IMG/VR virus record: IMGVR_UViG_2909739949_000002
Location: 18,529 to 82,528 of that record
Reading direction: 5' to 3' (one strand)
Source of the DNA: a virus
Taxonomy: Duplodnaviria; Heunggongvirae; Uroviricota; Caudoviricetes
Length of the DNA: 64,000 nt
Below are positions 4,725 to 56,295 of this stretch, in pieces; position 1 is the first letter of the stretch, and each line of letters opens with the position of its first letter. Made by a program: the position numbers and the translations under genes. The notes beneath the pieces were generated by a model that had not been told where the DNA came from, did no database searches, and saw only the letters and a program-made list of their open reading frames with translations.

Positions 4725-5089
4725 GGAGGATAGGGTAGCTATAAGTTTAAATAGATAATCAGTGATATCTGGGGTACTCCCTAAGAGTACTTTTTGTAAG
4801 CTTTTTGTATGCTCTTTGTCCATGCACCGTTAGAGCTGTCTTAGTATGCTCTAAGTGTGCTGGTTGTGCGCCAGTTGACCATCACTAGATGGACTGGTGA
4901 AGTATGCTTATTGGAAGCTTATTAGTGTGCTGATTGTCGAGCCGCTTGTAAGCTAGCTGACCTTCACTAATAAGTCGAGAAGAGTTAGCTAGTAGCCATG
5001 CTAACATGTCTCGCTTCTTTGGTGCATGGTCTATTCGCTTCATTACCAGCACCAATAAGCCAATACTAGTATTCAAATGGAGGTTCCTC

Positions 5090-5848
5090 ATGGCTGGTTT
5101 ATATGGAAAGTTTTCTAACCGCTCTGCTGAAGACAAAGAAGCTATCAAGAAGTTGCAACAAGAGCTACACAAGAAGTTACAAGAAGAACGGGAGGCAGAG
5201 CTAGCTGCTCTTCAGACGGTTAATGAAGGCGAAATAAGATATACCTTAGTAGTTGCTGCATCTGGTACTAAAGGAGGATTCTTACGTGAATCTCATCCAG
5301 AGATTGCTTCTGGGGTAATCTATGCTAAGTGTACAAGCATGGAAGGCATTGCCTACACTACAGTTCCTTCTACCAAAGATAAGCTGGCATGGAATGACCC
5401 AAATCATCCAGAAGATACCATGCTTGAAAGCACTATTGCTATCAGTATGTCGCTGGAAGACATGGAAATCTTTGAGAGCAATTTCAATGCCCGTCCAGAA
5501 AGTAGTCAGAGAGGCAGAGCCGTAGAGTTCGATGTGATTACCAGTGATACATTCACCATGAATGTTAGCGGTATCTTCTTTGCAAATGGGCTAAAGTGGT
5601 TAGGAGACATGGTTGCCCCTAAAGGCACTCAACCTTCTACTGCCGAGGAGCAAAGAGAATTAGCACGGGCTAATCGGGCTACCTCTATTGAAATTCGTAA
5701 TAATCGCATTGAAGCAGGTCGGGCTGCTCGTCGCAATATGATGATGGGTAATACTATTGCTCAAACTTCGCAAACTACTCAACCTGACCTTCAGCCTTCT
5801 GAAGTAGCTGAGATTAGCGAAGAAGATCTCAGTAAAGTAGGCGTGTAG
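5090..5848 (+). CDS. hypothetical protein
   Basis: ORF with GGAGG SD 7 nt upstream of ATG (MAGLYGKF...); longer ORF from 5006 lacks RBS. Confidence 0.5.
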   Translation: MAGLYGKFSNRSAEDKEAIKKLQQELHKKLQEEREAELAALQTVNEGEIRYTLVVAASGTKGGFLRESHPEIASGVIYAKCTSMEGIAYTTVPSTKDKLAWNDPNHPEDTMLESTIAISMSLEDMEIFESNFNARPESSQRGRAVEFDVITSDTFTMNVSGIFFANGLKWLGDMVAPKGTQPSTAEEQRELARANRATSIEIRNNRIEAGRAARRNMMMGNTIAQTSQTTQPDLQPSEVAEISEEDLSKVGV

Positions 5849-10950: not shown

Positions 10951-11012
10951 AAATAGATACATTCTTCTATTAGAGATAGTATTACCTCATTAGAAGAATG
11001 TATCTATTTAAA
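10951..11012. repeat. 20-bp-stem hairpin AAATAGATACATTCTTCTAA...TTAGAAGAATGTATCTATTT (family B)
   Basis: perfect inverted repeat directly after stop codon. Confidence 0.55.
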
Positions 11013-11054
11013 TAGTATTATTAACAGTTCTATTTAAAGTTATTGGAGGATGAG

Positions 11055-18367: not shown

Positions 18368-18541
18368 ATGAAACTAATTAAGTTTGCCTTCTTTCCTCTA
18401 TTCCTAGTTATGTATCTAATATCTCCTAAGAGAAATATAAAGAAGGAGATAGAAAAAGAGGTATCTAGAAAGATAGAAGAAGGAGACCCACCCCCAGGTA
18501 TTATCTGGGAGTGGGAAATAGAAGATGGGGAAGATGAATAG
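18368..18541 (+). CDS. small membrane protein (57 aa), not in ORF track
   Basis: AAGGAAGGTG SD; TM N-terminus, acidic C-terminus. Confidence 0.4.
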   Translation: MKLIKFAFFPLFLVMYLISPKRNIKKEIEKEVSRKIEEGDPPPGIIWEWEIEDGEDE

Positions 18542-36406: not shown

Positions 36407-37186
36407 ATGAAAGACGCATTGGGAGATAGAATGAAGGAATTCTATGAGAATGTTTATAGAATTCATTTAACTAGAAGAACTCCTGTAATTCTAAGACTAG
36501 ATGGTAAGTCCTTCCATACTTACTGTAAATCTCTGAAGGATAGGTTTAATAAAGGATTCATGAGATGTATGGATCTAACTGCTATTAGATTAATGGGGGA
36601 GATACAGGGAGCCCAGCTTGCTTTTGTGCAGAGTGATGAGATTAGTATTCTTCTACATGATTATAAGAAACTAACATCTGAAGCATGGATGAAGAATAAT
36701 ATTCAGAAGATGGTTAGTATTAGTGCAGCTATAGCTTCAGTAGAGTTTACTAAGAATAGTCCTATCATTTGGGGATTTAAAGAACTAGATGACGGCTCCT
36801 CTATACCTATAACCAAAGAAGCATACTTTGATAGTAGAGTATTTACTATCCCAGAAGCGGAAGTATGTAATTACTTTATCTGGAGACAGAATGATGCAAC
36901 TAGAAACTCTATTCTTTCTTTAGGTCAAAGTCTCTTTTCACACAAACAGTTACAAGGATTGAACTGTTCTATAATTCAAGATATATGTCATGATAAAGGA
37001 CATAACTGGAATGATTTACCTACTAGTCATAAGAGAGGTAGATGCATAGTTAAAAAGTACCACAACTTTGTATCAGAAGGTGGAGTAGAGACTATAAGAA
37101 GTAAATGGGTAGTAGACGAAGAAATACCTATCTTTACTCAAGATAGAAACTATATAAATAAGTATTTGGCGGTTGATAATAGTTAA
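36407..37186 (+). CDS. Thg1-like protein (tRNA-His guanylyltransferase family; 3'-5' nucleotidyltransferase)
   Basis: GGAG SD; VILRLDGKSFHTY, AFVQSDEISILL, FDSRVFTIP, YFIWRQNDATRNS match Thg1 motifs including the catalytic Asp positions. Confidence 0.8.
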   Translation: MKDALGDRMKEFYENVYRIHLTRRTPVILRLDGKSFHTYCKSLKDRFNKGFMRCMDLTAIRLMGEIQGAQLAFVQSDEISILLHDYKKLTSEAWMKNNIQKMVSISAAIASVEFTKNSPIIWGFKELDDGSSIPITKEAYFDSRVFTIPEAEVCNYFIWRQNDATRNSILSLGQSLFSHKQLQGLNCSIIQDICHDKGHNWNDLPTSHKRGRCIVKKYHNFVSEGGVETIRSKWVVDEEIPIFTQDRNYINKYLAVDNS

Positions 37187-48156: not shown

Positions 48157-50370
48157 ATGTCTAAATTAGATCAGTACTTGGATCTATTACAGCCTCAGTA
48201 TCTTAGTAGAGAATTCATTAAGAGTTATGAGAATAAGAAGCCACCCTTTGGTCAATTAGGTGCAGTTATATATATCAGAACTTATAGTAGGTTTATTGAA
48301 GAGTTACGTAGAAGAGAGAGATGGATTGAGACCATCAGTAGAGTAATAGAATATTCTCTAAGCTTAGATACAGTAACACCTTTTGAAGAGAAGCAAGAAG
48401 AGGCTAAAGAACTATTCGAGATGATGTTCTATCTTAAGGGATTACCTTCAGGTAGATCTTTATGGACTGCTGGCTCTGCACAAAGTAGAAGAGATTCTAG
48501 TTCTAATTGGAACTGTACCTTTAGGGTAATGGATTCTCTATCATCTTTTAGTGAAATTTATTATTGGTTATTAATTGGGGCGGGCACTGGATTTTCAGTA
48601 GAAGAGAAATACATTACTAAACTACCTAAGTTCTATAACAATAAGCAAATAGACCATGAGGAATATAATTGTCTATATCCTTATGTGAAGTCAGATGATT
48701 TATCTATTATTAGTGCTGATAAAGAAATAAGACTAGGTAAAGAATATCTCTATCTAAACGACGAAGAGTTTAGAGATAAGTTATCTGGTTTAGGTAGTGT
48801 AGTTCATATAGATATTGGAGATTCTAAAGAAGCGTGGTGTTTAACTCTTAGAACTCTACTAACTATATTTACTATTGAGTCTATTAGAAGGATTACATTT
48901 AACTATGATTTAATTAGACCAGAAGGTACTAGAATTAGAACCTTTGGTGGTAGAAGTAGTGGGCCTCGTGCTTTAAAAGAACTTATAGATAATATATTAA
49001 AGATATTTAACAGGTTTACTGAAGGTAGTGAGTTACTAGAGTTTGTTCTAGATTCAGTAGGTGTATTAGATATATTGAATGCAGTAGGGTTAAATGTTAA
49101 GAGTGGAGGTACTAGAAGAACAGCAGAGATAGGTCTAGGTAGTAGATTAGATAAAGCTTTTATTACTGCTAAAGAGAATCTATGGTCTGATCCTAAGAAA
49201 GAAGAATGGAAAGTTATTAGGACTATGTCTAATAATTCTATTCTTTATTATGAGAATCCAGGAGTAGAAGAGATTAGAAGAAACCTAGACTATACCCAGA
49301 ATGGAGATCCTGGTGTTTGGATTATAGGTAATAGTTTAAAGCTGGCTGAGAGTCCTGTAGCTGGAACAAATCCATGTGCGGAAGCAGCACTAGATGATAA
49401 ACAGTCTTGTAACTTGACAACTCAAGTTGTAGTGAATCATGTGTATCATGATTGGCTAATAGATAGTTATCAGTATGACTACGAAGCTAGCGAGAGAACT
49501 ATAGAGTTAATTACTCGTATTGGTTGTAGACAAACTCTAGCTAATCAATGGCATCCTGAATGGGATAAGACTCAGAAAAGAGATAGATTATTAGGTGTAT
49601 CCATGACTGGGATTATGGATGCGGCTGATATATTAGGTTGGGGTCTTAAGGAGCTTGAGGAATTCTTCAAGTGGGCTAAGAAAGTATCTATTGAAGAAGC
49701 TAATAGATATCACGATTATCTAGGTATTAATAGAAGTACTAGAGTAACATTACTTAAACCAGAAGGAACCTTATCTCTATTACCTACAGTAAGTAGTGGT
49801 ATTCATAGAGCATATGCACCTTATTTCTATAGAAGAGTTAGATTTAGTAAGACTGACCCATTAACTAAAGTACTCCTAGATGTAGGAATGGTACCAGTTC
49901 CAGAGAATGGACAGGGTGATGATCTCTATGCAGAAGAATGTAATACTTGGATATTTACATTCCCTATGAAGACTAATGCTTCTATTAGAGCTATTGATGA
50001 AAGTGCGATCGCACAATTAGAGAGATATAAAGTAGCTCAGAAGTATTATGCTGATCGGGGACATAACATTTCTATTACAGTAACCATTGAACCTAGAGAA
50101 TATGATGAAGTAGCTCAATGGTTATATGATAATTGGGATGATGTAATTGGTATAGCTTTCCTCAGTAGATTTGATCCTAGAGAAGGGGGTCAAGCAGCTT
50201 ATCCTAACATGCCTAATGAACCTTGTACTGAAGAAGAATATTTAGAGCTTAAGAGTAAGACACCAGAGTTAGATGAGTTAGAGTTGTTAGATTTACTTAC
50301 CAAGTATGAGACTGATTATGAAGACTACGAGTTAGATAGTGATTGTCTACAAGGATGTCCAGTTAAATAA
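48157..50370 (+). CDS. nrdJ: ribonucleotide reductase, class II (adenosylcobalamin-dependent, monomeric NrdJ-like)
   Basis: 737 aa; active-site N-P-C-A-E with second Cys 11 residues downstream (SCN), matching the Cys408/Cys419 spacing of class II RNR; LGVSMTGIMD loop; C-terminal CLQGC pair. Confidence 0.7.
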   Translation: MSKLDQYLDLLQPQYLSREFIKSYENKKPPFGQLGAVIYIRTYSRFIEELRRRERWIETISRVIEYSLSLDTVTPFEEKQEEAKELFEMMFYLKGLPSGRSLWTAGSAQSRRDSSSNWNCTFRVMDSLSSFSEIYYWLLIGAGTGFSVEEKYITKLPKFYNNKQIDHEEYNCLYPYVKSDDLSIISADKEIRLGKEYLYLNDEEFRDKLSGLGSVVHIDIGDSKEAWCLTLRTLLTIFTIESIRRITFNYDLIRPEGTRIRTFGGRSSGPRALKELIDNILKIFNRFTEGSELLEFVLDSVGVLDILNAVGLNVKSGGTRRTAEIGLGSRLDKAFITAKENLWSDPKKEEWKVIRTMSNNSILYYENPGVEEIRRNLDYTQNGDPGVWIIGNSLKLAESPVAGTNPCAEAALDDKQSCNLTTQVVVNHVYHDWLIDSYQYDYEASERTIELITRIGCRQTLANQWHPEWDKTQKRDRLLGVSMTGIMDAADILGWGLKELEEFFKWAKKVSIEEANRYHDYLGINRSTRVTLLKPEGTLSLLPTVSSGIHRAYAPYFYRRVRFSKTDPLTKVLLDVGMVPVPENGQGDDLYAEECNTWIFTFPMKTNASIRAIDESAIAQLERYKVAQKYYADRGHNISITVTIEPREYDEVAQWLYDNWDDVIGIAFLSRFDPREGGQAAYPNMPNEPCTEEEYLELKSKTPELDELELLDLLTKYETDYEDYELDSDCLQGCPVK

Positions 50371-54638: not shown

Positions 54639-54949
54639 TGGAAAATTTAATTAGATTTCTAATAGATGAAGGTGTAATATCAGAAGTCAATCAATTAAAA
54701 GCAGAAGCCGCCCTACATAGATATGTAATTACACATGGCTTCTGTTGCTATTGGACAGGTAATGATGTATTGACTAGGGCTAATAGCATGGGTGTAAGTT
54801 TAACTAAAGAGGAAGCAGCTAAGATTATTCTAGATATAGGTGAAGATCATGATGGGTATAAGCCTATTACTTGGGAGACTATTGAGGTGGCTATTAATAA
54901 TTATCTAAAAGGAATTTCTTTTCTTCCTCCTAATGAAACTGAGTACTAA
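54638..54949 (+). CDS. hypothetical protein
   Basis: GTG start, GAGG SD. Confidence 0.4.
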   Translation: MENLIRFLIDEGVISEVNQLKAEAALHRYVITHGFCCYWTGNDVLTRANSMGVSLTKEEAAKIILDIGEDHDGYKPITWETIEVAINNYLKGISFLPPNETEY

Positions 54950-54985
54950 TTTCTTTAATGGGTACTATATTAGTTAGATAAAACT

Positions 54986-55204
54986 ATGAGAAATAATATG
55001 GCACCTATAGAATTATCTCTAGAGCAACAGTTTAGTATTCGTTCCTTTGCTACTCAAGTAGAAGGAATGTCACATGAACAAGCTAAGGATTTCTTAGTGG
55101 ACTTATATAGACAAATGATAGTTAGAGAAGCCACCTATCAAGAGCTATTAAAACATCAATGGGGGCTGGATAATCCTCCTACCCTTAAGGATCAATTAGG
55201 ATAA
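54986..55204 (+). CDS. hypothetical small protein
   Basis: ORF 72 aa. Confidence 0.4.
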   Translation: MRNNMAPIELSLEQQFSIRSFATQVEGMSHEQAKDFLVDLYRQMIVREATYQELLKHQWGLDNPPTLKDQLG

Positions 55205-55209
55205 ATTAG

Positions 55210-55238
55210 TTGACAAATATCAACTAATACCCTACTGT
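55210..55238 (+). promoter_or_regulatory. sigma70-like promoter TTGACA-17-TACTGT immediately upstream of RNA array
   Basis: perfect -35 hexamer, 17-bp spacer, -10 with T1/A2/T6; predicted start about 7-10 nt before first array unit. Confidence 0.4.
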
Positions 55239-55249
55239 GATTTATATAA

Positions 55250-55368
55250 GGTACTGCTCCCTCTTCTGTCGAAGAATGAGATAGAAGCCATAGATAGTTA
55301 CTTCGGTTAAATCAAGGTTCAACTCCTTAAACTCTCATTGAGAGTATGTACTATCTAGTCCACCGTCC
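55250..55368 (+). ncRNA. Y-RNA-like structured RNA unit a (with tRNA-like module)
   Basis: 5' GGTACTGCT ... TAGATAGT-TTACTTC ... T-arm AAGG-TTCAACT-CCTT, closed acceptor AAACTCTC-ATT-GAGAGTAT ... ACTATCTA ... CCACCGTCC. Confidence 0.5.
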
Positions 55369-55396
55369 TTATATAAATAAGCATTTAAATATAGAT

Positions 55397-55465
55397 GGGT
55401 GCTGCTAATTAAGAGTTACTTCTTTTAGGGTAAAGACACAGTAAGACTCTAATGCTCACTGCCCC
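55397..55465 (+). ncRNA. Y-RNA-like structured RNA unit b (short form)
   Basis: GGGTGCTGCT-AATTAAGAG-TTACTTC ... ACTCTAAT ... CACTGCCCC; internal helix ATTA(A)GAGT/ACTCTAAT. Confidence 0.5.
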
Positions 55466-55483
55466 ATTTTTAATCTTCTCAAT

Positions 55484-55672
55484 ATGGAATGGAATAAGGA
55501 GATAGATTTACTCTTTGATAAATGGATAGAGATATCAATAGAGAAAGGTGAATGGTTTTACTTTTCAATAAAAGAAATCTATGATGTAGATCCTAAGTAT
55601 CAAGGAGTATTAGGTAAAACTGATTCAAGACCTGTATTTGAATTAGGATTTAGATTACCTTTTAAGATCTAA
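55484..55672 (+). CDS. questionable small ORF (62 aa) inside the RNA array
   Basis: no SD; lies between units b and c. Confidence 0.25.
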   Translation: MEWNKEIDLLFDKWIEISIEKGEWFYFSIKEIYDVDPKYQGVLGKTDSRPVFELGFRLPFKI

Positions 55673-55682
55673 ATAAATTAGA

Positions 55683-55809
55683 GGTGCTGCTCTAGATAGT
55701 TACTTCAGTAAAATCGTTCGGTTGTTAGTTCAAGTCTAACTATTACCCAAGGGTAATATAGCTCAATGGTAGAGCAAATGAAAAGATAAAACTATCTAAC
55801 CCACTGCCC
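55683..55809 (+). ncRNA. Y-RNA-like structured RNA unit c (with tRNA-like module 55724-55776)
   Basis: GGTGCTGCT-CTAGATAG-TTACTTC; T-arm GTTAG-TTCAAGT-CTAAC; acceptor TATTACCC-AA-GGGTAATA; D-arm GCTC-AATGGTA-GAGC; helix TAGATAGTT/AACTATCTA; 3' CCACTGCCC. Confidence 0.6.
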
Positions 55810-55820
55810 TCTTAGGAAAT

Positions 55821-55891
55821 GGGTACTGCTAGTTAAGGTTACTTCTATTAAAGCCAACAAACAGAGACAATACCTTAACGCTTACCGTCCC
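55821..55891 (+). ncRNA. Y-RNA-like structured RNA unit d (short form)
   Basis: GGGTACTGCT-AGTTAAGG-TTACTTC ... ACCTTAAC ... TTACCGTCCC; helix GTTAAGGT/ACCTTAAC. Confidence 0.5.
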
Positions 55892-55898
55892 ATTTAAT

Positions 55899-55970
55899 CC
55901 AGTCTTAGTTCATCGGTAGAATAGGCCTTTTGGGAAGGTCGGGTAACTGGTTCAATTCCAGTAGACTGGA
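55899..55970 (+). tRNA. tRNA-Pro (anticodon UGG)
   Basis: acceptor CCAGTCT/AGACTGG, D-stem GTTC/GAAT, anticodon stem GGCCT/AGGTC loop TTTGGGA, T-arm ACTGG-TTCAATT-CCAGT, discriminator A. Confidence 0.75.
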
Positions 55971-56046
55971 TTTAACTAACTAGTACTAAAGTGATGTAAT
56001 CATGTAGATTACTTCTCTTTAGCTTATAAGGGTTAGTTAGAATAGA

Positions 56047-56198
56047 AGTGCTGATAAGTAGAGATACATCAATAAATTAGATGTCCGTAGGTTCAAATCC
56101 TACTATTATTAGGTAACTAGTAATATGGCTGAGTGGCTAAAAGCATCTATTCTTAAAGAGTAGAGACATCACATACCATTTCTCTACTGACTACTGCC
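56047..56198 (+). ncRNA. Y-RNA-like structured RNA unit e (with tRNA-like module 56087-56144); preceded by degenerate partial unit at ~55990
   Basis: AGTGCTGAT-AAGTAGAGA-TACATC; T-arm GTAGG-TTCAAAT-CCTAC; acceptor TATTATT-A-GGTAACT-AGTAATA; D-arm GCT-GAGTGGCTAAA-AGC; helix AGTAGAGA/TCTCTACT; 3' CTACTGCC. Confidence 0.5.
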
Positions 56199-56212
56199 TT
56201 CTAGATATGAAA

Positions 56213-56287
56213 GGTACTGAATAGATAGAGATACTTCTACCGCAAATGGAAACATGGTAAACAAACCCTCTCTATCATCTACTGTCC
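56213..56287 (+). ncRNA. Y-RNA-like structured RNA unit f (short form)
   Basis: GGTACTGAA-TAGATAGAG-ATACTTC ... CTCTCTATC ... CTACTGTCC; helix GATAGAGA/TCTCTATC. Confidence 0.5.
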
Positions 56288-56295
56288 TTTTAGTA

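Follow-up and report, generated by a model that had tools for sequence, protein, structure and literature searches.

In bacterial YrlA RNAs (Rfam RF02553; Chen et al., 2014, PMC4201824), a T stem-loop, a closed acceptor stem-loop and a D stem-loop come one after another, enclosed by a stem to which both sides of the RNA contribute. They are bound by Rsr/Ro60 and modified by TruB and DusA, and covariation of a Levitt pair has been noted in them by the same authors (Chen et al., 2014, PMC4201824). YrlA is also described as an RNA that "lacks the anticodon loop" (bioRxiv 10.1101/312249); its counterpart of the anticodon stem continues into the Ro60 module. In Mycobacterium smegmatis, YrlA and YrlB are produced from one precursor, in vivo the 7-bp acceptor is cleaved by RNase P and provided with CCA, and stable Rsr-bound RNAs arise by processing of the upstream units (PMC4201824). 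Complexes of Ro60, Y RNA and PNPase have been found in Deinococcus, in Salmonella and with the Ro60 of phage phiLo (PMC4201824, PMC12135203); in phiLo, Yrl1 and Yrl2 are encoded upstream of the phage Ro60 gene, and the complex is formed with the host PNPase (PMC12135203), which offers a model of host PNPase being hijacked. Phage-borne Ro60 genes accompanied by Y-like RNAs are already known, from mycobacteriophages as well as from phiLo. Here, we describe a tandem set of Y-RNA-like units directly upstream of a Ro60-like gene on a 64,000-nt stretch of DNA, hereafter the window, which covers positions 18,529 to 82,528 of a record assigned to the Caudoviricetes (IMG/VR IMGVR_UViG_2909739949_000002).

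We regard positions 55246-56366 of the window, with a probability of about 0.82, as a polycistronic array of Ro60-associated Y RNA genes on a phage-like element of a Calothrix genome. The array is a divergent and expanded relative of the YrlA tRNA mimics and not a new kind of gene; by analogy it would work like YrlA and YrlB, yet it stands outside the curated family, from which it is set apart by the Rfam RF02553 model and by its motif. It consists of seven paralogous Y-RNA-like units (a to g), one true tRNA-Pro gene and a hairpin, x. Structures, covariation, synteny and family relationship were established computationally. The features are listed below; the bit scores of the units come from R1, a covariance model of their common stem that was built on the array alignment.

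55246-56366, plus strand: the array, between the NblA gene and the 535-aa Ro60-like open reading frame (ORF), 65 nt 5′ of the latter.
55246-55372, plus strand: unit a, the shared bulged stem with an extra 5′ hairpin, a T arm and a 6-bp hairpin, no D arm (47.7 bits).
55395-55467, plus strand: unit b, short, Y-like and YrlB-like, without a tRNA-like part, with covariation (68.1 bits).
55680-55812, plus strand: unit c, YrlA-like, with a variable-arm (V) hairpin, T arm, closed acceptor and D arm (72.6 bits).
55819-55893, plus strand: unit d, short and Y-like (83 bits).
55898-55971, plus strand: a genuine tRNA-Pro(UGG) gene between units d and e, 4 nt after d (called by ARAGORN; Rfam tRNA model, 53.4 bits).
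55975-56038, plus strand: hairpin x, with a degenerate Y 5′ motif AGUACUA...GAUUACUUC (fold of -18.8 kcal/mol).
56044-56202, plus strand: unit e, Y-like, holding a predicted complete permuted class-II tRNA-Leu(UAA)-like cloverleaf (59.2 bits).
56210-56290, plus strand: unit f, short and Y-like (63.1 bits).
56293-56366, plus strand: unit g, short and Y-like (70.5 bits).
56432-58039, plus strand: a gene for a Ro60-like protein (rsr) of 535 aa, with TROVE and vWA domains and a DVSGS MIDAS (metal-ion-dependent adhesion site) motif, the presumed partner of the RNAs.

The ends of the units align cleanly (MAFFT, alignment A1): every unit opens with GGURCUG...(G/A)(U/A)UAC(U/A)UC and closes with YAC(U/C)G(U/C)CC. 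These ends pair into a common stem, which consists, from its base, of a closing stem of 4-6 bp, a bulged U, two pairs (RC/GY), a 2-nt bulge on the 3′ strand, two further pairs (UG/YA), an internal loop and an 8-bp stem, after which UUACUUC follows. In Y RNAs in the broad sense, the two ends of the molecule form a conserved bulged helix, and here the bulged U and the 2-nt bulge are both kept. Over the seven units 96.6% of the cells are paired and both sides change in 11 of the 17 pairs; none of 500 shuffles was as good, and slid controls were paired in only 35-51%. A compensatory switch separates units a, d and f, in which UACUG goes with ...GUCC, from units b, c, e and g, in which UGCUG goes with ...GCCC. 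When 17 distinct units from the window and from viral contigs are taken together, 95.1% of the cells are paired and both sides change in all pairs but one (16 of 17). Over the 64-kb window R1 finds exactly the seven units, at 47.7-83 bits, and its next best match scores 19.9 bits. Two matches of about 20 bits each, at 49676-49757 on the minus strand and at 10953-11033 on the plus strand, were taken as chance; the first lies antisense within a gene for ribonucleotide reductase. The bulged terminal helix is presumed to be the docking site for the Ro60-like protein encoded downstream.

That protein matches the TROVE family of Pfam at 44 bits (cut-off 23; E 2e-11) and the family PHROG 850, 'RNA-binding protein', at E 2e-28, and it has the predicted architecture of Ro60/Rsr, a TROVE HEAT-repeat ring joined to a vWA domain with a MIDAS. 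Among solved structures, the closest to it is that of Thermus phage phiLo Ro60 (9KOP/9L5Y), a remote match with E 2e-6 over about 150 residues. An identical protein, encoded on a 359-kb contig, is found in Calothrix sp. FACHB-1219, and the next relative is 52% identical. YrlA RNAs have their genes no more than about 4 kb from a TROVE/Ro60 gene and on its strand; here, rsr is on the plus strand like the array and starts at 56432, after the end of the array at 56366. Compared with its homologues of 460-470 aa, the protein has about 65 aa more, chiefly in a lysine-rich insertion at residues ~135-190, between the conserved YW.D and SKQV blocks, and this insertion contains the internal repeats VLWDKD/VLWRKD and DIRYKKG/EVRYKKG.

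What do the units carry on top of the common stem? A preliminary description of this DNA had placed tRNA-like modules with loop-closed acceptor stems in units a, c and e, and the sequence strings it quoted are all found in their places. In unit c, a V hairpin (55712-23) is followed by a 5-bp T arm, GUUAG-UUCAAGU-CUAAC (55724-55740), the acceptor hairpin UAUUACC-CAAG-GGUAAUA (55741-55758), a UA linker and the D arm GCUC-AAUGGUA-GAGC (55761-55775). The acceptor hairpin had been drawn with 8 bp and a 2-nt loop; for steric reasons it must have 7 bp and a 4-nt loop. In unit e, the T arm GUAGG-UUCAAAU-CCUAC (56087-56103) leads into the acceptor hairpin UAUUAUUAG-GUAA-CUAGUAAUA (56104-56125) of 9 bp under a GNRA loop, and then, after a UG linker, into a D arm of class-II type, with a 3-bp stem and a long loop, GCU-GAGUGGCUAAA-AGC (56128-56144). 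Both D arms are as they had been proposed. In both units the T arm, the closed acceptor hairpin of 7-9 bp, the 2-nt linker and the D arm thus follow each other in exact tRNA geometry, and minimum-free-energy folds show every arm, with a z-score of -3.6 for unit e. Unit a has a T arm with a 4-bp stem, AAGG-UUCAACU-CCUU (55314-55328), and a hairpin, ACUCUC-AUU-GAGAGU (55331-55345), whose 6 bp are followed by an A-A mismatch and run directly into the Y stem. Since it has no D arm, unit a is a partial module only and cannot form the tRNA elbow. The acceptor strands had been called perfectly complementary, which fails for unit a and, in unit e, has to admit one G-U among the 9 pairs.

The modules of units c and e were recognized independently of the window. 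R2, a covariance model made from 14 T-acceptor-D modules of other genomes with no window sequence among them (alignment A4, 98.6% paired, double changes in 12 of 15 pairs), finds in the whole window (128 kb searched) only unit c (48.6 bits, E 5e-11) and unit e (30.8 bits, E 2e-6); neither the tRNA-Pro nor unit a was matched. Unit a was also undetected by the YrlA model of Rfam and by ARAGORN. In a set of 20 modules, 97 of 100 cells are paired at the five basal positions of the acceptor hairpin, versus 37-46 in slid controls, and each position shows 4-6 pair types; in the T stem, 100 of 100 cells are paired. The Levitt pair between positions 15 and 48 is a tertiary contact of the tRNA L-shape. 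It covaries in all 20 modules, as A15-U48 in eight and as G15-C48 in twelve; unit c has the former and unit e the latter, formed by the nucleotide before the T stem and position 15 of the D loop. This covariation supports an L-shaped fold, and the nucleotides of other tertiary contacts of tRNA (G18G19, U54U55C56, A58, U8 and A14) are likewise present in both units. Judged from these sequences, units c and e carry predicted tRNA-shaped domains with loop-closed acceptor stems. Three other sources of such patterns were considered and rejected. A dimeric-tRNA false positive of the YrlA model would be flanked by the halves of two intact tRNAs, which are not found around unit c; in CRISPR-like repeats or repeats like miniature inverted-repeat transposable elements one would not expect unit sequences that differ yet keep their pairing; and tRNA fragments at prophage attachment sites do not account for a T arm followed by the complementary 5′ acceptor strand and a D arm.

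Let us compare these units with the described Y RNAs. As in the YrlA/YrlB loci of Salmonella Typhimurium and M. smegmatis, there are several units at the locus, on the same strand as the adjoining rsr. As in YrlA, units c and e have a basal stem and an apical tRNA mimic in the order V, T, closed acceptor and D; unit c shares the UA linker and the GCUC/GAGC D stem, and its 7-bp acceptor has the length found in M. smegmatis YrlA; the array also shows a YUAY element 17 nt past the 5′ motif and the covariation of the Levitt pair. Units b, d, f and g, as well as unit a, resemble YrlB, the short or T-arm-only companion. Thus, the heads vary on one stem: four are short, that of unit c is of the orthodox YrlA type, that of unit e is a fuller mimic and that of unit a is a T arm with a hairpin. 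The following features are unlike YrlA. Its GNCGAAN0-1G motif is replaced by GGURCUG with a conserved partner strand (GGURCUG...UUACUUC), and the helix is conserved on both strands; UUACUUC is nearly invariant across the units; and unit e keeps an anticodon-like arm and has a variable arm and a D arm of class II, whereas unit c lacks the anticodon loop just as YrlA does. Conservation of both strands of a bulged terminal helix, their Ro60 site, is shared with Yrn1 of Deinococcus radiodurans and the metazoan Y RNAs, in which the helix sequence is instead of the GGUCCGA type; the T and D arms of Yrn1 have another orientation, and a tRNA-like domain is absent from metazoan Y RNAs (PMC4201824). Phage phiLo likewise has Y-like RNAs directly upstream of its Ro60 gene, but what identified these RNAs was a CGAA motif, located in a large internal bulge, and their description includes no tRNA-like domain (PMC12135203). 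The preliminary description had called the topology exactly that of YrlA. This holds in kind for units c and e, by the order of their arms, the Ro60 gene, the recurrence of the modules and the Levitt pair, while identity with YrlA does not hold, because of the scores given below, the exchanged motif and the anticodon-like arm of unit e.

As a side observation, (G)UUACUUC, which stands after the 5′ strand of the second stem (for example at 55698-55705, 55414-55421 and 55837-55844; unit e has GAUACAUC), is kept in all seven units including those without a tRNA-like head. It is also found in distant high-GC relatives and in Bacteroides phage crAss001, and it overlaps the YUAY of YrlA.

Several points weigh against reading the array as Y RNA genes. 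A search with the YrlA model of Rfam, as had been proposed, matches unit c from end to end (35.7 bits, E 9e-6, 1.4 kb searched), which is below the gathering score of 69 bits, and units a and e searched singly give no match at E<=10. The GNCGAAN0-1G motif is found by regular expression in none of units b to g. Its one match over 55240-56400, GTCGAAG at 55268-74, is in the 31-nt extra hairpin that is unique to unit a, while about 0.26 matches are expected over the array by chance, by a rough estimate. This GUCGAAG (55268-55274) may mean nothing, or unit a may carry both kinds of Ro-binding motif. Since the published motif is absent from six of the seven units, binding of Ro60 to the GGURCUG helix has position and conservation as its only grounds. 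Because the Ro60 of the window has no close homologue (next best 52%), there is no orthologous array for comparison. The z-scores of single-unit folds are modest (-0.6 to -3.6); they are weak evidence here, and covariation is therefore needed. The candidate promoter and terminator of the array are weak matches. Finally, the array is known from its sequence, from predicted folds and from comparison alone.

Unit e deserves separate consideration. The preliminary description had the anticodon stem opened into the long Ro-type stem, which is right for unit c and wrong for unit e, where it had overlooked two hairpins. One nucleotide after the D arm, at 56146-56164, there is an anticodon-like arm of 5-8 bp with a canonical 7-nt loop, C-U-UAA-A-G, and a 5-bp hairpin at 56066-84 takes the position of a long variable arm before the T arm. 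Unit e is thus predicted to be a complete circularly permuted tRNA cloverleaf, opened between anticodon stem and variable arm, whose two ends continue into the Y stem. Only in unit e does a 3′ half that comes before the 5′ half complete a cloverleaf with it; unit c has no anticodon arm, and in unit a nothing of the kind is found. When unit e is rearranged into the order acceptor 5′ strand, D arm, anticodon arm, V, T arm and acceptor 3′ strand, ARAGORN calls a class-II tRNA-Leu(UAA), even with the unit's own flanks, while none of 1000 shuffles is called and unit e as encoded gives no call. With the Rfam tRNA model (RF00005), unit e as encoded gives two half-tRNA matches of 18.6 and 13.5 bits; at the threshold of 29 bits for a canonical contiguous tRNA, only the tRNA-Pro qualifies in the array region.

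Can units c and e then be circularly permuted or split tRNA genes, the latter giving rise to an aminoacylatable tRNA-Leu(UAA)-like molecule? The pathway would start with cleavage by RNase P and 3′ processing in the acceptor loop, followed by CCA addition, and the halves would be held together, or later ligated, through the Y stem. Circularly permuted tRNA genes are found in Cyanidioschyzon merolae, and permuted two-piece tmRNA (transfer-messenger RNA) genes in alpha-proteobacteria and some cyanobacteria. The preliminary description had called circularly permuted tRNA genes unknown in bacteria and phages; permuted genes for the tRNA-like tmRNA do exist in bacteria. As in the C. merolae genes, the T arm and acceptor 3′ strand of unit e come before the acceptor 5′ strand, the D arm and the anticodon arm. 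Besides the call by ARAGORN and the two half matches, this idea can draw on the presence of all five class-II arms with a canonical anticodon loop and of an A after the acceptor 3′ strand, on a Thg1-like tRNA 5′-end repair enzyme encoded on the same element, and on the YrlA of M. smegmatis, which in vivo is cleaved by RNase P and acquires CCA (PMC4201824). However, the Y stem into which the ends of unit e are extended is also present in the four units without tRNA parts and in unit c without an anticodon arm; the ends form a conserved helix of protein-binding type. This helix, with its 1-nt and 2-nt bulges and internal loop, does not have the 3-4-3 geometry of a bulge-helix-bulge, the motif that the splicing endonuclease cuts in C. 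merolae-type genes, whose products pass through a circular intermediate to a mature charged tRNA, and we know of no bacterial pathway by which such ends are joined. The 9-bp acceptor helix under a GNRA loop would be a poor substrate for RNase P and RNase Z, CCA is not encoded, and acceptor hairpins of relatives vary from about 5 to about 18 bp, which a conserved acceptor function would not allow. In addition, no e-like module was found among the relatives examined, and blastn of the un-permuted unit e against phages gave no match and so identified no donor tRNA. We therefore consider it improbable that these units are tRNA genes, and Y RNA genes with tRNA-mimicking heads remain our preferred reading.

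Next to unit e, the Rfam tRNA model gives a weak match at 55990-56111 (22.4 bits), in which AGUGAUG (55990-96) of hairpin x pairs with the acceptor 3′ strand of unit e. Hairpin x is of uncertain status, possibly an eroded unit or a remnant of an upstream tRNA copy. It also contains CUUCU (56012-16), which could rival 56197-201 for pairing to AGAAG (56044-48).

Relatives of the array were sought around other TROVE genes (L numbers are our locus labels). DNA-motif scans of viral contigs are swamped by chance matches, and after filtering by R1 and tblastn 6 of 219 pattern-matched loci were real. One contig found through the 5′ motif (L067, 57% GC) has about four units upstream of a TROVE ORF, namely one YrlA match (41.2 bits), one short unit, one with only a T arm and a hairpin like unit a, and one further tRNA-like unit. 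The same class of RNA adjoins TROVE genes in the viral contigs L162, L165/L193, L158 and L197. A scan of viral contigs with the Ro60 protein as single query found no relative, and megablast of 54900-58100 against 50,697 phage records gave no match. The three closest TROVE relatives (L301, L302 and L304; 51-52% identity) lie in phage-like contexts with integrase, HNH and similar genes; each has 2-3 units in the gap of 330-420 nt before the gene, and exactly one T-acceptor-D module (R2, 56-57 bits). Among 80 genome loci of the TROVE clade, drawn from many phyla, 21 have R1 hits; the 27 hits are all on the strand of the TROVE gene, and most of them directly flank it. The YrlA model of Rfam reaches its gathering score in none of the 20 scanned loci with R1 hits, where sub-threshold scores of 32-50 bits are common. 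With 2-4 units in the arrays of relatives, the seven units and tRNA of the window make it the largest array in this sample.

These distributions bear on two further explanations. The units might belong to the rsr mRNA as a structured 5′ leader, such as a set of autoregulatory binding sites for Ro60, as rsr follows the array directly on the same strand with no canonical terminator between them. This is given little chance, since the units stand downstream of the TROVE gene in L227, L231, L233, L234 and crAss001, since the real tRNA within the array must be excised, and since the upstream units of M. smegmatis become stable Rsr-bound RNAs (PMC4201824). In relatives, too, the units on the TROVE strand frequently have genuine tRNA genes interleaved with them (L223, L233, L234, L239 and L240), which suggests that the units are released by tRNA-processing enzymes. 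Alternatively, the units might be decaying remnants of tandem tRNAs or repeats without present function, whose resemblance to tRNA is historical only. Unit a is indeed partial, hairpin x and the spacer between units b and c look like eroded units, and the array has no orthologue. Decay is nevertheless hard to believe in when compensatory changes keep every helix, both among the paralogues and across phyla of very different GC content, when the Levitt pair covaries in every one of the 20 modules, and when the RNAs are strictly linked to TROVE genes and their strand.

Two of the relatives show unusual neighbours. In a contig of a Bacteroidales metagenome-assembled genome (L241), 84 nt at 2296-2379 match positions 1077-1160 of bacterial 23S rRNA, the L11/GTPase-associated centre, at 59.9 bits; the segment lies beside a Y-like unit (2133-2247) upstream of the TROVE gene and may be an rRNA-fragment mimic. 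In L231, a tmRNA-like match (1396-1920, 52 bits) is found 1 kb upstream of the TROVE gene and two Y-like units just downstream of the gene. The latter contig has been binned as a Nitrososphaerota archaeon and is probably a phage or a mis-binned bacterial contig.

Bacteroides phage crAss001 (NC_049977.1, L001) offers a different arrangement. Its TROVE protein is 45% identical to that of the window, and downstream of its gene, at 4920-5825, there are four unannotated copies of a Y-like motif (...AGAGUUACUUCAA), which shares ...AGAGUUACUUC with the units of the window. Two of the four copies are inside tRNA-shaped RNAs with open acceptor stems. The one at 5193-5336 scores 46.6 bits with the Rfam tRNA model and has an insert of 82 nt, and the one at 5447-5587 has a T arm and, in the position of the anticodon arm, a hairpin with the same bulged helix (GGG-U-AG-UG / UG-UU-CU-CCC) and a GAAG loop. 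Unlike units c and e, these RNAs keep the native order of a tRNA with the acceptor open and the Y-type helix closed by a loop, and so, from folding and inspection, they appear to be the opposite circular permutation of the same parts.

Nearly all ORFs of the 64-kb window are on one strand. They include genes for class II ribonucleotide reductase, cobalamin adenosyltransferase, SPFH, ParB-like, LAGLIDADG endonuclease, TnpB, Thg1-like, NblA and spore-photoproduct-lyase-like proteins, and no structural genes were identified among the ORFs tested; the window looks like a phage-like element, phage or prophage, of a Calothrix genome. The features that border the units are the following.

54986-55204: the NblA gene (phycobilisome degradation; Pfam E 1e-25), which stops 6 nt before the putative array promoter.
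55210-55238, plus strand: a candidate sigma-70 promoter, TTGACA (55210-15), a 17-nt spacer and TACTGT (55233-38); unit a begins 8 nt on.
56370-56397, plus strand: a 12-bp hairpin after unit g, without a clean U tract (fold of -17.3 kcal/mol).

We infer that TTGACA-17-TACTGT is the promoter of the array. A TTGACA-17-TATAAC of like geometry precedes the first unit in L165/L193, while a simple scan for promoters and terminators gave nothing above background, the array promoter being below the threshold of the scanner. The hairpin at 56370-56397 was not called in the terminator scan; it is possibly a terminator or attenuator, or a processing site, before rsr. The 212-nt gap between units b and c (55475-55680) contains a 62-aa ORF (55484-55672) with no obvious Shine-Dalgarno sequence and no match in Pfam or PHROG. 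Near its start it is similar to the 5′ half of unit f (71%; repeat family D2), and it may be a decayed unit and not a gene. Elsewhere on the element, the Thg1-family protein (36407-37186; Pfam E 2e-23), a 3′-5′ polymerase like tRNA-His guanylyltransferase, is a second function of tRNA/RNA-repair type besides Ro60. A 224-aa ORF at 15578-16252 matches the N-terminal part of the PHROG 850 profile (TROVE-like 'RNA-binding protein', E 2e-15) and, weakly, DUF2828; it is not directly similar to the Ro60 of 535 aa (BLASTP E 0.11) and may be a second, truncated or divergent gene of TROVE type. The weak R1 match at 10953-11033 is in the same window as this ORF.

By analogy with D. radiodurans, Salmonella, M. 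smegmatis and phiLo, the expression, processing, Ro60 binding and function of the array may be pictured as follows. The whole array would be transcribed from the promoter that ends about 8 nt before unit a, into what is probably one precursor, because the spacers between units are only 2-22 nt where no other element intervenes. The precursor would be cut by RNase P and 3′ processing at the tRNA-Pro, and possibly at the 7-bp acceptor of unit c, and Ro60 would dock on the bulged helix of each released RNA. The tRNA-like heads might then recruit a tRNA-binding effector or PNPase, or they might protect and stabilise the RNA, and the outcome could be that host RNA decay or repair is re-targeted during infection. 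The TROVE gene of crAss001 is an early gene (PMC8375218), which fits a role in taking over host RNA metabolism.

That bacterial and phage Y RNAs mimic tRNAs is known already. The YrlA model of Rfam misses a widespread phage-linked branch with a different Ro60-type helix, and the seven units and tRNA in one putative transcript provide a natural series of heads on a common stem. Unit e, in which no arm of a tRNA-Leu is missing, is relevant to the idea that YrlA originated from dimeric tRNA transcripts, and together with the RNAs of crAss001 the locus suggests that a chimera of tRNA and Ro stem is viable in either circular permutation. A bolder reading, which we hold only tentatively and find rather doubtful, is that the Y RNAs of the phage-associated TROVE clade form an undescribed subfamily, marked by the GGURCUG/UUACUUC helix, scoring below the threshold of the Rfam YrlA model and occurring in both circular permutations, in which unit e is a living intermediate that still has a whole tRNA-Leu(UAA) cloverleaf. 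If so, it would directly support a tRNA origin of Y RNAs, and during infection unit e might be matured into a tRNA that can be charged or that serves as a decoy, such as a bait for anticodon nucleases. And if phage Ro60-Y RNA particles do manipulate host RNA decay or a tRNA-directed defence, these RNAs would be their specificity elements.

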